Positions 49,626-59,850 of a stretch of DNA of 64,000 nt are shown piece by piece; position 1 is the stretch's first letter; every line of letters starts with the position of its first letter. The notes under the pieces were generated by a model. That model ran no database searches and was not told the origin of the DNA. It saw only the letters and a program-made list of their open reading frames with translations. A program made the position numbers and the translations under genes. This DNA is from Eledone cirrhosa (taxonomy: Eukaryota): assembly GCA_964016885.1 (NCBI GenBank), contig OZ024749.1:55304001-55368000 (forward strand), written 5' to 3'.

Positions 49626-50123
49626 TAAGAACTTTTGATAAAAGCAGAAGTGAACACATATCTATGTTTGTAAAAGAATTTCTCTAAAATACAAAAAGAT
49701 GCGATATAGATATCTTTACTCTTCTTGGTCACATAAAAAGAGGAGACACACAGACACACTGTATATTGTATATCACACACACACACACTGTATATTGTAT
49801 ATCACACACAGACACTGTATATTGTATATCACACACGGACTGTATATTGTATATTGTATATCATTCAGAATAAGAAAACTCCAAGATTGGAAGATTGGAA
49901 CAAAACCAACCAAAAAAGAAAAAAACAAAAAAAAAATGATATTTTAAGAACCAGAAGACAAGATAAAAAGCAGAAACAAAGAATGCAAACACACAATACA
50001 ACAACAACAATAATGATAATAATAATAATAATAATAATAATAAAACTAGTGAAACAAAGGAGCAGTTGTAGAAGCAGGTGTAGCACTAAAGGATGACGAA
50101 GAAGAGTTTTAGAGCACTACTAC

Positions 50124-50239: not shown

Positions 50240-50248
50240 CTGTGAGTG

Positions 50249-50281
<33 letters not shown>

Positions 50282-50640
50282 ATGGCGGTTGCGGTTGCAG
50301 TGGTGGTGGTGGTATTAGTTGTCATTGAAAAAAAAATTGTTTTTTTTTTTGTTTTTTTTTCAGTAGACAAGAAGGGTCAACAACAGAAGGTGGTGGTGGT
50401 GGTGGTGGCAGCAGCAGCAGTAGCAGCAGTAGTAGTAGTAGATGACAGCAGCAGGAGCAGCAGTGGCAGCAGCAGCAGCCGATAGCAGCAGCAGCAGCAG
50501 CAGGAGTGGTTATAAAAGTGCAGATGAAGCACAGGTTGCATGCAGAGTAGTGGTACGAGTGCACAGGAGAGGGTCAAGGTATGAAAGAGAGGAATAGCAA
50601 AAAAAAAGTAAAAAAAAAAAAAAGAAAAGAAATAATAGAC
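50240..50640 (-). promoter_or_regulatory. extended AG-exclusion zone with distal polypyrimidine tract, (CUG)n/YGCY cluster and UGCAUG upstream of an mbl exon
   Basis: No CT on + (no AG on -) from 50242 to 50640. U-rich tract at ~50584-50632; CUG-rich block at ~50408-50503; TGCATG on - at 50539-50544. Confidence 0.65.
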
Positions 50641-50999
50641 CTTATTTTCCTTTTTTTTTGTGATTTGCGTATTATTATTATTATTACTATTATTATTATT
50701 ATTGGTAAAACATTGAAAAAAAAAAATTAAGAAATCCTGGTCTTGGAGTCTTCAGGTTTTTCTTGTGCCTGCCACATGGAAAGAATCACAAAAATATGCA
50801 CGCAAGAACATTGCTTAGAAGTTTGGAATTCCAAAGAATTTTGGGAGTTTCTTTTTTGGACATGTCAAAATCTTAGCTGATCTAGACAGATACGAACGAC
50901 CAAGGAAGGAATCTTGTGAAATTCCAGTGAAAAAAAAAAAATTTTTTAATGGTAATTGTATTAGCAGAAGAGGTCACACTTGTACCAAAAAGTAGAAAG

Positions 51000-54207: not shown

Positions 54208-57200
54208 TCAGCATGTACCCATGGGAGGTCGGGTACCCTGTATTACTGCGTGACGCCAGAAGTCACGGTCGTGTGTCATTGACTTTGAGAGGTGTAGTTG
54301 GGTAAGGTCGGCTTTTATCACCTCATCCCAAGTCATCTTGGGTCTCCCCACTCCGCGGTTTCCATCAACTTCTAGTGCTCTGCACCTTTTTATGCAGCTG
54401 TCATCCTTCATACGCATCACATGTCCATACCAGCGTAACCGCCTCTCCTGCACGCAGCATTTGATTCCTCTTATGCTCAGTCTCTCTCTCAATTCATTTA
54501 TGCTTTGTCGTTCACGTATATTACTGTTACACATCCATCGGAGCATGCAGGCTTCGTTTCTCTCTAATCTACGTAAGTCTTCCACCTTCAGCGCCCAGGT
54601 CTCACTACCATGCAACATCGCTGTTCGGATACACGCATCATACAGTCTGCCTTTCATTCTGAGGGAGAAGCCTTTTGCAGCTAGCAGTGGTAGTAGTTCC
54701 CTAAACTTCTTCCATCCCGTTCTTACCCTAGTTATTGTACTTTCTGAGCACCCACCTCCGTTGCTAATTCGGTCACCTAGGTAGCAGAAGCTGTCTACTG
54801 TTTCTACAGGGCCCTCCCAGAGATTGGTGGTACTTGTTTCCTGTGGCTGTTTGCTTGCTGTTTCAGCACAGCTGCTGCATGTGAATCCTACATTCTTAAT
54901 TAAGCTTCCTGAGATCCCGCTACATCTCTTGTGTACCCATTGTTTGCATTTGGGGCAAAGAATGGAGTTCCTACCTACACCTTTCCTACATACTGAGCAA
55001 GGCCATTTCCCTGAGGGGATCTGGGTTCTGTTTTCTCGTCTACTTATAAGGACCTTAGTCTTTGTCATGTTGACTTTGAGGCCCTTTCTCTCTAGTCCCT
55101 GCTTCCAGGTTTGGAATTTATTCTCTAGTTCTACCATAGATTCAGCTATGAGTGCGAGGTCATCAGCATACAGGAGTTCCCATGGGCATCCGGTCTTAAA
55201 CTCCTCCGTTATTGCCTGCAGGACTATGATGAACAGGAGAGGGCTAAGAACAGAGCCCTGGTGGACCCCAACCTGTACGCTAAATTCCTCGCTATACTCA
55301 TTGCCAATCCTAACTTTGCTGACTGCTCCCCTATACATGGCTTGTACCGCTTTCACAAGCCATTCATCTACTCCTAGTTTTCTAAGAGCCCACCAGATTA
55401 CTGCACGTGGAACTCTGTCAAAGGCTTTCTCAAGGTCGACAAATGCCAAGTAGAGTGGCTTACTTTTAGCTAGGTACTTTTCCTGTAATTGCCTCACAAG
55501 GAAGAGCGCATCAGTGGTGCCTTTCCCTGGAACAAACCCAAATTGCATCTCGTCTATATTCACCCGGTCCCTAATCAGCTGTGCTATAACTCTTTCTGTT
55601 ACTTTCATGACCTGGTCCATCAACTTTATACCTCTATAGTTTCCTCTATCTAGTGCATCGCCTTTACCTTTGTAGCAGTTGACAATGATGCTACTGCACC
55701 AATCTTTTGGTATGGCCCCCTCTAGTATTACCTGGTTAACGATACGTGTGGTTATAGTGTGACCTACAGACCCAGATGCCTTCAGCATCTCGGCAGCTAT
55801 ACCCGATGGACCGGTTGCCTTCCCTATCTTCATATCTCTGATTGCCTTACTTACTACGCTGCCGCTGACTTGTACTGCTGGTCCCTCTATAGGGTCTACG
55901 TGGGGTAGGGTCTCTTCTTCCCATGCATTCTCCTCATTTAGTAATCTATCATAATGACTCTTCCATGCATCTTTCTTCTCAGCACTTGTGAGGGCAAGCT
56001 CACCTTTATCATTCCGGATACACTTCTCTCCAATGACATCACAACTATCTCTGACACACTGCCTCGCAATCTTGAATACCTCCTGTTTCTGGTCCTCACG
56101 TTGTAAAACATGCTTGAATTTTCTATCCTCTGCTTCCCTCCTAGCTAAGTATACTTGTCGCCTAGCTTCCCTCTTGGTCTCTATGTAATGTACCCTGCTC
56201 CCCCCGTTCTTCCATTCTTTCCATGCCTGTCTCTTGGCCTTGACTGCTTCATCTACCTTATTGTTCCACCACCAAGTCACTCTCCTCCTGCTTGAGGTCT
56301 TACTCCAGCCACAAACCTCATCCGTCGCCTCTAGTAAGTTATTTTTTAGGAACTCCCAGTTCTCTTCTACGTTAAATGTCTCTATCTGTTCTTCTTTACT
56401 GTCGTAGGCGTTGAGTAAAATATCTTTAAATCTGTTACTGGTTGAGGGGACTTTCAGCTTCCAGATCTTTCTTCTCCAGGTTGGCCTCTGTTTCAGGGCT
56501 CGTCTAGTTCTGACCGTGAGGTCGCTGACAACTAAGCTATGTTGGGATGTACATTCCTCACTAGGGAAGGCTTTTGTGTTTACGACCGTCCATCTGTCAC
56601 GTCCTCTGATGAGAATAAAATCTAACTGACTAGAGTGCTCCCCTGATCTATAGGTGATCAGGTGGTTGTCGGGTTTTTTAAAGTTTGTGTTACATATCGA
56701 CATGTCATTGGCGTCGCAGAATTCTAGAAGTCTGAATCCTTCCTCATTCCTTGTGCCAACTCCATGGCCTCCATGTACTCTATTGAAGCCGTCGCAGTGT
56801 TTACCTACGTGTCCGTTAAAATCTCCTGCAATGATTAGGAAGTCCTTGTCGTCTGTTAGAGCAGTAGTGTGTATTAGGGACTCGTAAAACCTATCCTTAA
56901 GTTCGTCTGGCAGCCCCGATTGGGGTGCGTAAGCTGATATTATTGTGGTAATTGTCTTATTCAGGACTAGTCTGAGTTTAATGATTCTTGCATTTACCCT
57001 GTACACTGAGATTACTTTATCTACCCACTTGTCAGCTAATAGTATACCTACACCACCCATCCCATCGTCATTTCCCACCCAGAAAAATTTGTAGCACTGG
57101 CTTTTTCCTACAAGGACTCTAGCAGACCCTCCTCTCCATCTAGTCTCTTGCACACAGCATACATCAACTTCCTTTCGCTCTAGCATTTCTACGATTTCTC

Positions 57201-57327
57201 CTGCTCTTCCTTTCATTGAGCCTACATTGATGGTACCAACTCGGAGTTTTGGGCATTTGTCGACACTCGTAGGGGAGGGTCTCTGGGTTGGCGCTTCACG
57301 TGGGTGCTTGGTAGCTCGCAGATTCAT
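54208..57327 (-). CDS. RTE-clade LINE ORF: APE endonuclease + reverse transcriptase + PHD-like Cys/His finger (1039 aa)
   Basis: EN motifs GTINV, QETRW, YAP, GDFNGH, QLDFIL, SQHSL; RT motifs NYRGI, QFGF, FVDLEKAFD, GVHQGSVLSP, YADD, YLG; CSVC-x9-CPKC-x4-HKRC...CSSC; C-terminal RLRWYGHV..GRPK. No stops or frameshifts. Confidence 0.96.
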   Translation of the reverse strand: MNLRATKHPREAPTQRPSPTSVDKCPKLRVGTINVGSMKGRAGEIVEMLERKEVDVCCVQETRWRGGSARVLVGKSQCYKFFWVGNDDGMGGVGILLADKWVDKVISVYRVNARIIKLRLVLNKTITTIISAYAPQSGLPDELKDRFYESLIHTTALTDDKDFLIIAGDFNGHVGKHCDGFNRVHGGHGVGTRNEEGFRLLEFCDANDMSICNTNFKKPDNHLITYRSGEHSSQLDFILIRGRDRWTVVNTKAFPSEECTSQHSLVVSDLTVRTRRALKQRPTWRRKIWKLKVPSTSNRFKDILLNAYDSKEEQIETFNVEENWEFLKNNLLEATDEVCGWSKTSSRRRVTWWWNNKVDEAVKAKRQAWKEWKNGGSRVHYIETKREARRQVYLARREAEDRKFKHVLQREDQKQEVFKIARQCVRDSCDVIGEKCIRNDKGELALTSAEKKDAWKSHYDRLLNEENAWEEETLPHVDPIEGPAVQVSGSVVSKAIRDMKIGKATGPSGIAAEMLKASGSVGHTITTRIVNQVILEGAIPKDWCSSIIVNCYKGKGDALDRGNYRGIKLMDQVMKVTERVIAQLIRDRVNIDEMQFGFVPGKGTTDALFLVRQLQEKYLAKSKPLYLAFVDLEKAFDRVPRAVIWWALRKLGVDEWLVKAVQAMYRGAVSKVRIGNEYSEEFSVQVGVHQGSVLSPLLFIIVLQAITEEFKTGCPWELLYADDLALIAESMVELENKFQTWKQGLERKGLKVNMTKTKVLISRRENRTQIPSGKWPCSVCRKGVGRNSILCPKCKQWVHKRCSGISGSLIKNVGFTCSSCAETASKQPQETSTTNLWEGPVETVDSFCYLGDRISNGGGCSESTITRVRTGWKKFRELLPLLAAKGFSLRMKGRLYDACIRTAMLHGSETWALKVEDLRRLERNEACMLRWMCNSNIRERQSINELRERLSIRGIKCCVQERRLRWYGHVMRMKDDSCIKRCRALEVDGNRGVGRPKMTWDEVIKADLTQLHLSKSMTHDRDFWRHAVIQGTRPPMGTC

Positions 57328-57570
57328 ATTTCATCTATTGATTCAGAGTTGCTCGTGTATTCCCAGCTCATCCATCCATAACGGTGGGAAAATTGAGGGC
57401 TAGAAGGACAGTGGTGGTGGGGTAATGGCAGGGTGTGTTGGGATGCGCCAGAGGAGGAGAGAGTTAGTTAGGCAGGTAGTAGCAGCAGCAGCAGTGGAAA
57501 TGGCATGCTAGGTTTGATTGGTCGAATAGACTATGGTGGTGTGTGGGGGTGGGGGGGAGGGAAATTGTGA

Positions 57571-59275
57571 GGTAGGAACTGAGGGTCGCATGGTAAATAT
57601 CCAAGTTAATACTACATCAGTAAAATTAACAATAATAACGTCATGAAAAAAGCTACTAAGAGAAACCCTCGAAAATTTATCGCTAATACAGCAGGGAAAA
57701 TTTAACGCTAATACAGCAGGGAACATCATAATATTAACGACATGAAAAAGCTACTAAGAGAAACCCTCGAAAATTTATCGCTAATACAGCAGGGAAAATT
57801 TAACGCTAATACAGCAGGGAACATCATAATATTAACGACATGAAAAAGCTACTAAGAGAAACCCTCGAAAATTTATCGCTAATACAGCAGGGAAAATTTA
57901 ACGCTAATACAGCAGGGAACATCATAATATTAACGACATGAAAAAGCTACTAAGAGAAACCCTCGAAAATTTATCGCTAATACAGCAGGGAAAATTTAAC
58001 GCTAATACAGCAGGGAACATCATAATATTAACGACATGAAAAAGCTACTAAGAGAAACCCTCGAAAATTTATCGCTAATACAGCAGGGAAAATTTAACGC
58101 TAATACAGCAGGGAACATCATAATATTAACGACAATATGTAGGCTAAAATACCTTCGTAGATTAGGTGGATGGCTGGCTGGGAAAATTTGAATCAGCTCT
58201 ACTGGTACATTTTAGCAGAGAAGAATGGCAAAGTGTCTTATCTCTTCAATATTTTCAGATTGAATGAATTAGGTTAAAGACAGGGTAGTAAGCCTTAAAG
58301 AAGTGCATAGAGGGGGGGGGGGTAGGAACTGAGGGTCGCATGGTAAATAACTGAGAGAGATACAATAGGATTAGAATACCGCATGGTAAATATCCAAGTT
58401 AATAAGTTAATACTACATCAGTAAAATTAACAATAATAACGTCATGAAAAAAGCTACTAAGAGAAACCCTCGAAAATTTATCGCTAATACAGCAGGGAAA
58501 ATTTAACGCTAATACAGCAGGGAACATCATAATATTAACGACATGAAAAAGCTACTAAGAGAAACCCTCGAAAATTTATCGCTAATACAGCAGGGAAAAT
58601 TTAACGCTAATACAGCAGGGAACATCATAATATTAACGACAATATGTAGGCTAAAATACCTTCGTAGATTAGGTGGATGGCTGGCTGGGAAAATTTGAAT
58701 CAGCTCTACTGGTACATTTTAGCAGAGAAGAATGGCAAAGTGTCTTATCTCTTCAATATTTTCAGATTGAATGAATTAGGTTAAAGACAGGGTAGTAAGC
58801 CTTAAAGAAGTGCATAGAGGGGGGGGGGGGGTAGGAACTGAGGGTCGCATGGTAAATAACTGAGAGAGATACAATAGGATTAGAATACCGCATGGTAAAT
58901 ATCCAAGTTAATAAGTTAATACTACATCAGTAAAATTAACAATAATAACGTCATGAAAAAAGCTACTAAGAGAAACCCTCGAAAATTTATCGCTAATACA
59001 GCAGGGAAAATTTAACGCTAATACAGCAGGGAACATCATAATATTAACGACAATATGTAGGCTAAAATACCTTCGTAGATTAGGTGGATGGCTGGCTGGG
59101 AAAATTTGAATCAGCTCTACTGGTACATTTTAGCAGAGAAGAATGGCAAAGTGTCTTATCTCTTCAATATTTTCAGATTGAATGAATTAGGTTAAAGACA
59201 GGGTAGTAAGCCTTAAAGAAGTGCATAGAGGGGGGGGGGGGTAGGAACTGAGGGTCGCATGGTAAATAACTGAGA
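57571..59275. repeat. nested tandem repeat: ~410-750 bp super-units carrying 5, 2 and 1 copies of a 98-bp monomer
   Basis: ggtaggaactgagggtcgcatggtaaata recurs at ~57571, 58322, 58831 and 59240. The 98-bp unit catgaaaaagctactaagag...attaacga recurs at ~57642, 57741, 57839, 57937, 58035, 58443, 58542 and 58952, nearly identical. Confidence 0.95.
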
Positions 59276-59850
59276 ATTGTTAGTTGAAAACCAGCAACAA
59301 CAAAAAGAAAAAAAAAGGGTTAGGTGAAAAGATTGGCTGGGGTGTAAATAACTGTGTCTTGCAGGGGTGTATGTAAATGTATTTCTCAGGAGTGTATGTA
59401 AATGTGTCTCTCAGGGGTGTATGTAAATATGTTTTGCTCTACATGTGTGGCAGGCCAACCAATACAAATCTAGACCAGGATCTCCAGAAGCAGAAAGAAA
59501 TCAACATTTTATATGCAAACCTGAAGACAAGTATTTATTAATATGACTGGCTATAATTTTTACACACTCCCACATATACACACACATAAATATACATACA
59601 TGTTGTGTGTACAGTTGTATCACATAATTTATAGTCAAGAGTGTATTGATGGTTAAATGTTAATTACTTTCGTTAATCTAATCACCAACAATTCAAAACT
59701 ATATAAAGAAAAAATGTTATGCTTTTAAATGACATAAGTTTAAAGTTGACAAACTTTAAATTAGACTAGAGTAGTTATTGACACTACCAATATCATTACA
59801 ATAATGAATGTCATTGAATTTAAGATGTTTTTCCAACAAAATGGAATGTA

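Follow-up and report, generated by a model that had tools for sequence, protein, structure and literature searches.

Feedback on the NLS exon of muscleblind genes has been described several times (PMC4176163, PMC10773944, PMC5082313, PMC11837677, PMC13044900). In human MBNL1 exon 5 and worm mbl-1 exon 7, YGCY motifs lie in an AG-exclusion zone that follows a distant branch point, and the protein represses inclusion of its own exon (PMC4176163, PMC10773944). The NLS exon is in-frame and controls nuclear import, whereas the octopus exon described here, E7, switches the reading frame, and its closest known cases are the vertebrate 95-nt exon and fly AE3 rather than human exon 5. The 95-nt exon of human MBNL1 (exon 9) has its main branch point at -229 and a 224-nt zone (PMC2991248). 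Loss of MBNL1 modestly raises inclusion of the 95-nt exon of Mbnl2 (exon 9), with a shift of frame, and iCLIP places binding upstream of and inside that exon (PMC9943662). Two 2026 preprints count MBNL1 and MBNL2 among vertebrate dual-coding genes. In the fly, including AE3 shifts the frame and brings in two more fingers (mbl-C vs mbl-O/P); the forms are cell-type specific, and knocking them down or overexpressing them revealed no crosstalk (PMC9352392), a finding that speaks against self-repression as a general rule. The second finger pair of MblF is divergent (PMC3315501), finger number varies among homologs (PMC5041496), and a 2026 review gives invertebrate Mbl a single finger pair and lists e8 among the self-controlled exons (PMC13044900).

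The exon E7 belongs to the muscleblind gene of the octopus Eledone cirrhosa and was analysed in a 64,000-nt stretch of contig OZ024749.1 (positions 55,304,001 to 55,368,000), referred to here as the window. E7 almost certainly acts as a frame switch between two protein ends.

The muscleblind gene and the AG-free zone before E7

The gene lies on the minus strand, and coordinates beyond the window are given as gene coordinates, in which the numbering of the window continues upward through the adjoining stretches L004-L019. The gene is identified as a muscleblind/MBNL gene by its tandem CCCH finger pairs (PF22628) and by homology with Mbl proteins that carry this name, and family and protein searches place three zinc-finger pairs on exons at about 212.9, 160.1, 108.1, 39.5 and 38.4 kb. 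The second pair is followed by a 69-nt NLS exon (gene coordinates 94536-94468, minus strand) and, in the exon map, by E6 (gene coordinates 87099-86958, minus strand), which ends in phase 1. Protein matches reveal two microexons that preserve the frame, one of 42 and one of 36 nt (gene coordinates 86315-86274 in L006 and 77496-77461 in L005), which are near-identical, lie 9 kb apart and are both found in octopus and further cephalopod-like proteins; the exons that other molluscs carry at this position are unrelated. An alternative last exon, taken from O. sinensis models, lies at 72.0 kb (L004:7961-8233) with its 5' part in a 200-N gap, and its use is a third outcome that bypasses E7-E9.

E7 itself is a 116-nt cassette exon at 50239-50124 on the minus strand, running from phase 1 to phase 0 and delimited by AG/GT borders and homologous proteins. 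It is followed by E8, an 85-nt exon at 39495..39579 (minus strand), and by the coding part of E9 at 38303..38439 (minus strand), which carries zinc finger 6 and the stop and is 3' untranslated in the skipped form. The first 35 nt of E8 (39579-39545) are dual-coded, giving zinc finger 5 after inclusion of E7 and GHPPTVPRF-stop after skipping. Fingers 5 and 6 are intact here and in a cephalopod-like protein.

Several other elements were seen along the locus. A LINE-type open frame of 1040 residues (endonuclease, reverse transcriptase, PHD-like finger) occupies 54208-57330 of the minus strand in the intron upstream of E7, on the same strand as the gene, and adjoining it, at about 57600-59300, nested tandem duplications, with unit lengths of roughly 60 bases and of several hundred, are visible by eye. 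AT-rich simple repeats at 8858-11990 (3.1 kb) and 39951-42300 (2.3 kb), the latter between E7 and E8, account for the longest AG-free stretches and for spurious long frames. A protein entry named as a spider toxin (P0015) is by its sequence a fragment of the muscleblind third pair and is probably mislabelled.

On the minus strand, AG is absent from 50640 to 50242, a distance of 399 nt, and the acceptor AG occupies 50241-50240. This AG-exclusion zone (50242..50640) contains 23 YGCY motifs, 19 of them in a (CUG)n/(CUA)n cluster at 50408..50503 that forms a predicted Mbl binding platform, and a motif search finds a single copy of UGCAUG at 50544-50539. The original prediction of a gap of about 400 nt before a real muscleblind exon of 116 nt, with over a dozen YGCY in the cluster and a UGCAUG at this site, was therefore accurate. 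Its description of the polypyrimidine tract was correct in placing the strongest one distally, where pure pyrimidine runs span 50632-50610 (23 nt) and 50594-50583 (12 nt), but it overlooked a weaker 8-nt run 3' of a second TTGAC at 50377 (-138). The splice sites of E7 consist of a weak donor (GTAGTA) and a U-poor acceptor, and among ten acceptors with a confirmed AG, a set without E2b and E2c, the lowest U content beside the AG is shared by E7 and the NLS exon (31% each). E7 thus stands behind a long AG-exclusion zone with clustered YGCY before a weak acceptor. The zone was rejected as an exon in its own right, since its reading frame is closed by a stop codon about 85 nt ahead of the acceptor and homologous proteins begin the exon at the acceptor. 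As a DNA query against its own genome, the zone returned CUG-repeat matches only.

An AG-free zone of this length arose in 0/20,000 mononucleotide shuffles and in 0/567 overlapping composition-matched segments, although both nulls overstate its rarity because CUG, CUA and CCA repeats are by nature without AG. Across 224 kb, 21 AG-free stretches, mostly TA repeats, are longer than the zone, 16 of 7,700 AG intervals in the gene reach at least 399 nt, and three 300-nt segments of the opposite strand hold 20-22 YGCY, compared with 23 at E7. Single features are common in this repeat-rich genome; their combination, together with the placement at an exon, is rare. The gene has 114 AG-free stretches that reach 150 nt; just 3 of them contain at least ten YGCY, and two of these three end at acceptors, namely those of E7 and the NLS exon, the count on the opposite strand being 1/42. 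Three of the four densest YGCY segments on the transcribed strand touch an exon, against a baseline of 4.4% of all segments within 100 nt of one, and 0/10 of the top opposite-strand segments fall within 3.5 kb of an exon. The E3 acceptor also lies behind an AG-free zone, of 227 nt and made of CT repeats, and E3 is present in the full-length octopus proteins retrieved.

Further YGCY clusters were noted elsewhere in the gene. A 353-nt AG-free stretch with 15 YGCY lies deep in intron 1 (gene coordinates 198605-198958, L017), with no known exon nearby. Clusters also occur just 3' of the donors of the finger 3-4 exon (gene coordinates 107792-108091) and of exon 2 (159392-159691), where they may promote inclusion or circle formation; fly exon 2 is known to form circles.

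Skipping, inclusion and the two frames of E8

Translation of the joined exons without E7 gives a protein ending in FAGHPPTVPRF, whereas its inclusion sets the downstream exons in the zinc-finger frame and adds 101 residues with two fingers. E7 has the properties of a frame-changing cassette: a length that is not a multiple of 3, a passage from phase 1 to phase 0 and a position before a dual-read exon. That it is alternative, as had been proposed, is supported by relatives in which both forms are annotated. The expectation that skipping would shift the frame and remove fingers was also correct, but the pair concerned is the third of the three mapped and not the second, and skipping is more than a loss, as it yields a conserved alternative protein end. 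The consensus of this short tail, GHPPxxPRF-stop, is conserved, and skipping therefore selects a conserved isoform instead of abolishing one.

In Mytilus, scallops, Patella, spiders and Centruroides, and within one fly species, the tephritid Eurosta, annotations exist for the skipped as well as the included form. The short end is found in Lineus, Lingula and a millipede, and six fingers in a hemichordate and a coral. These database isoforms are gene models, and the RNA support behind them was not seen. Among 24 cephalopod-type proteins, 12 have the short end (annotated O. bimaculoides, O. vulgaris and O. sinensis plus nine cephalopod-like proteins), 11 have the alternative last exon and one is partial; none contains E7. 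In P0011, a contig-derived protein of a relative, the microexon is joined to E8, and all ten spliced contigs from the metagenome scan (eight distinct) use the skip frame of E8, with fingers 5-6 intact behind the stop. In cephalopods, the skipped form seems to be the usual one. No E7-including transcript was seen in this species or in any cephalopod, and with 0/24 cephalopod proteins including the exon, its inclusion in octopus is weakly supported. One contig of run X1, at a depth of 3.4, starts exactly at donor 50124, which is a weak hint of splicing there, the RNA nature of the run being a guess.

The sequence of E8 indicates that both of its frames are under selection. Third-position diversity is 0.22 over codons 1-11 and 0.63 over codons 13-28 (Mann-Whitney p=4e-5, an optimistic value because the E8 sequences are related), and the stop in the second frame is kept in 12/12 distinct E8 sequences. 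Two coral-like loci, which stand outside this set of 12, have finger 5 without the second frame. A role of E7 as a poison exon, with unproductive splicing on skipping, was rejected, given that the skip frame is conserved and used in 10/10 spliced contigs. Between the end of the skip-frame stop and the last junction lie 50 nt, and the decay rule places the limit at 50-55 nt before a junction. With the stop at the edge of this rule and the skipped form common in contigs, decay after skipping is unlikely.

Counterparts in relatives, in a distant invertebrate and in vertebrates

Public sequencing runs were searched for reads matching the region. No run held half of the stretch's words, and this species itself is therefore unsampled, so the read comparison concerns relatives only (4/24 runs), with uncovered parts being uninformative; masking of repeats places the CUG cluster, and the intron beyond 50060..50123, outside the conservation figures. 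In run X11, an 890-nt contig of organism B is colinear with the E7 region and shows 4 differences in 155 nt over E7 and its downstream intron. The intron just 3' of the donor (50060..50123, minus strand) is conserved in organisms A and B with one substitution and one indel in 64 nt, and a 3-nt in-frame indel is seen in the E7 region of relatives, as read from loose ends. Upstream of the exon, a block at 50539..50595 (minus strand) containing UGCAUG and a TTGAC branch candidate has 3 differences in 57 nt in organism B (X11), and the spacer in this contig measures 278 nt, compared with 323 nt here. A second intronic block, upstream of the zone at 50732..50774 (minus strand), has 6 differences in 43 nt in X3 and X11, run X3 covering this upstream block only, and beyond it the contigs of the relatives diverge from the window.

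The strongest evidence for conservation of the zone comes from L042, a contig of a distant, non-cephalopod invertebrate that holds the NLS exon, E6, a 95-nt E7 ortholog, E8 and E9. Among its 557 AGs, the longest gaps are the 194 nt before the E7 ortholog and the 144 nt before the NLS exon, and the same two sites have the densest YGCY segments of its 10 kb (17 and 15 per 200 nt). The E7 zone of L042 contains CUG/CUA runs and a GCAUG at -32, with a branch candidate just 5' of the AG that bounds the zone. The CUG clusters of octopus and L042 gave no blastn match and only a gapped low-complexity alignment. The architecture at E7 is common to octopus and L042 even though the sequence is not, which indicates conservation in another lineage, represented by this one contig. 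In these respects the original prediction is supported: the zone lies in an intron, related species conserve part of it, and L042 rebuilds its architecture. No E7 ortholog was found in termite-like and coral-like genomic contigs. RNA structure is not supported as the mechanism, as the predicted fold of the octopus zone (z -3.2) is owed partly to an A-run/U-run hairpin and the L042 zone reaches only z -0.9. Fold prediction also pairs 50526-50516 with 50241-50231, covering the acceptor and the exon start, which may be chance; the same pairing is not significant in the L042 fold prediction.

The NLS exon of octopus is the ortholog of human exon 5 and lies 44 kb upstream of E7, where it keeps an element of its own, a 197-nt AG-free zone with 12 YGCY by motif count and UGCAUG on both sides (L007:429-671, G000:C9:55398429-55398671, minus strand). 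Its intron and exon match L042:950-1208 with 78% identity over 272 columns, an ultraconserved element. The original prediction held that the logic of human MBNL1 had been applied here to a different exon. Two findings speak against this view: the octopus exon 5 ortholog has retained its own element, and the same architecture is found in human MBNL1 at the exon that corresponds in position to E7, the 95-nt exon.

E7 and the vertebrate 95-nt exon share their position in the gene (downstream of the post-NLS exon and of small exons that keep the frame), the passage from phase 1 to phase 0, a length of 3n+2, similar peptide ends, a long AG-exclusion zone and a switch of frame at the C-terminus, and 95 nt is also the length of the scorpion and L042 exons. 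The vertebrate peptides (lizard and others) align end to end with a profile of nine invertebrate sequences, and the real score was reached by 1, 5, 47 and 6 of 500 shuffles for four vertebrate peptides; three of these fall at or below about 1% and one, at 9%, is not significant, the peptide being short and of low complexity. For the full lizard protein, the best local match is weak (E 0.023). The two exons are likely orthologous. They differ in that vertebrate inclusion leads to a short tail, with removal of a degron in MBNL2, and octopus inclusion to a third finger pair, and in zone length (224 nt in the vertebrate and 399 nt in octopus). The fly AE3 exon resembles E7 in that exclusion gives a short form while inclusion shifts the frame and supplies two further fingers, and a tephritid fly has the same two protein ends. 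It differs in that the available part of the fly paper reports neither an AG-exclusion zone nor self-repression, and in that its forms are cell-type specific (PMC9352392). As a separate observation, the vertebrate skip-form tail DTHNICR (P0269) resembles the start of finger 5, DTLPLCR (39573-39553), and is a possible remnant of a lost third pair, though the frame relation is opposite.

Proposed repression of E7, its alternatives and a possible origin

As an explanation of the whole, we consider it reasonably probable that E7 is a frame switch with a distant branch point on which Muscleblind represses its own exon. Use of the distal branch point in octopus is likely, as is repression of E7 by Mbl, both by analogy with the vertebrate 95-nt exon, where MBNL repression and a distant branch point have been demonstrated. 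The best distant candidate is the A at 50633 (-394), which together with a strong U-rich tract spans 50583..50633 (minus strand), is followed by 25 nt that are 96% pyrimidine and occupies the 5' edge of the zone, which matches the situation in human MBNL1. A further predicted branch point is the TTGAC in the conserved block at 50539..50595, with its A at 50574 (-335), and nearer candidates (50315..50377, minus strand) have their A at 50377 (-138), with the 8-nt pyrimidine run, and at 50315 (-76), with none. U2AF and U2 would assemble at the distal U-rich tract and at a branch point close to -394 or -335. From there the spliceosome would have to span about 400 nt to the first AG, a distance that would explain the missing AGs. 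Mbl bound to the CUG cluster, between the branch point and the AG, would block this step, perhaps together with an RBFOX protein bound to the conserved UGCAUG. E7 would be included where Mbl is scarce, and Muscleblind would in this way exert negative feedback on its own longest form.

The nature of the repressor is the point at which this mechanism is most open to a competing account, in which the frame switch and the distant branch point are retained but RBFOX-, CELF- or PTB-type proteins set the choice by cell type, with Mbl playing a minor part. The best-conserved intronic block does hold UGCAUG, L042 has its GCAUG at -32, the worm NLS exon is co-repressed by FOX-1 (PMC10773944), and the C and O/P forms of the fly each belong to particular cell types and show no crosstalk. 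However, the densest YGCY segments in both octopus and L042 are found at the E7 site, and the vertebrate 95-nt exon responds to MBNL1, so we regard this account as unlikely. A different concern is the branch point itself. If one of the nearer candidates, at -138 or -76, were used, Mbl could cover the region just upstream and the far zone would be incidental; the TTGAC with its 8-nt run and the CTAAT at -76 are compatible with such use, and the human MBNL1 95-nt exon has weak proximal branch points too (PMC2991248). Yet the distal point dominates in human (PMC2991248), and in octopus the strongest tract and the conserved block are both distal, which makes the use of a nearer point highly improbable.

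It could also be argued that neutral microsatellite growth accounts for the CUG runs and for the surplus length of the zone, with the weak splice sites causing the skipping and the exon perhaps nearly silent in cephalopods. The repeat-rich genome, with its equally dense opposite-strand YGCY segments and 21 longer AG-free stretches, fits this idea, as do the lack of E7 in all 24 cephalopod proteins and a zone about twice the length of that in L042 or human. But the same architecture stands at the matching exon of L042, in an intron without such a repeat load, and relatives show an open frame, a frame-keeping indel and conserved flanking blocks, with fingers 5 and 6 intact here and in the cephalopod-like protein. 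We therefore consider neutral growth very unlikely, and retain self-repressed frame switching from a distant branch point as the preferred reading.

Under this preferred reading, E7, fly AE3 and the vertebrate 95-nt exon would derive from one ancestral exon. A tentative scenario, which we put forward with somewhat less than even confidence, is that the ancestral animal Muscleblind had three finger pairs, that early bilaterians placed the third behind a self-repressed frame-switch exon, and that vertebrates lost the pair and kept the exon. In the same tentative scenario, vertebrates would also have kept the AG-exclusion zone and MBNL control, with the 95-nt exon now tuning protein stability. 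If ancestral, the switch would presumably be over 550 million years old.

Each component of this system is already known in another animal; linking them as one ancestral switch appears to be new, in that no description of E7 in molluscs, or of a vertebrate-fly-mollusc link, was found in the main text of the open literature searched. Part of it may already be visible in the supplementary alignments of PMC10773944 and PMC5041496. Cephalopod muscleblind is not mentioned among the matches listed, no such link appears among the matches listed for the dual-coding literature, and no paper on the tail peptides was found in the literature searched. Six fingers are annotated in molluscs, arachnids, a fly, a hemichordate and a coral, in contrast to the one pair given by the review, and the six-finger form is missing from the cephalopod annotations retrieved (n=24).

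In total, the comparison ties three separately published observations, the vertebrate branch point, MBNL repression and the fly AE3 switch, to one likely ancestral exon, and it shows the mollusc form of that exon. The predicted natural CUG-repeat exon silencer is relevant to myotonic dystrophy biology. The locus also raises the question of whether Mbl feedback controls the protein's own number of RNA-binding domains, and if the proposed reading is true, the octopus element would be a surviving feedback switch that counts them.
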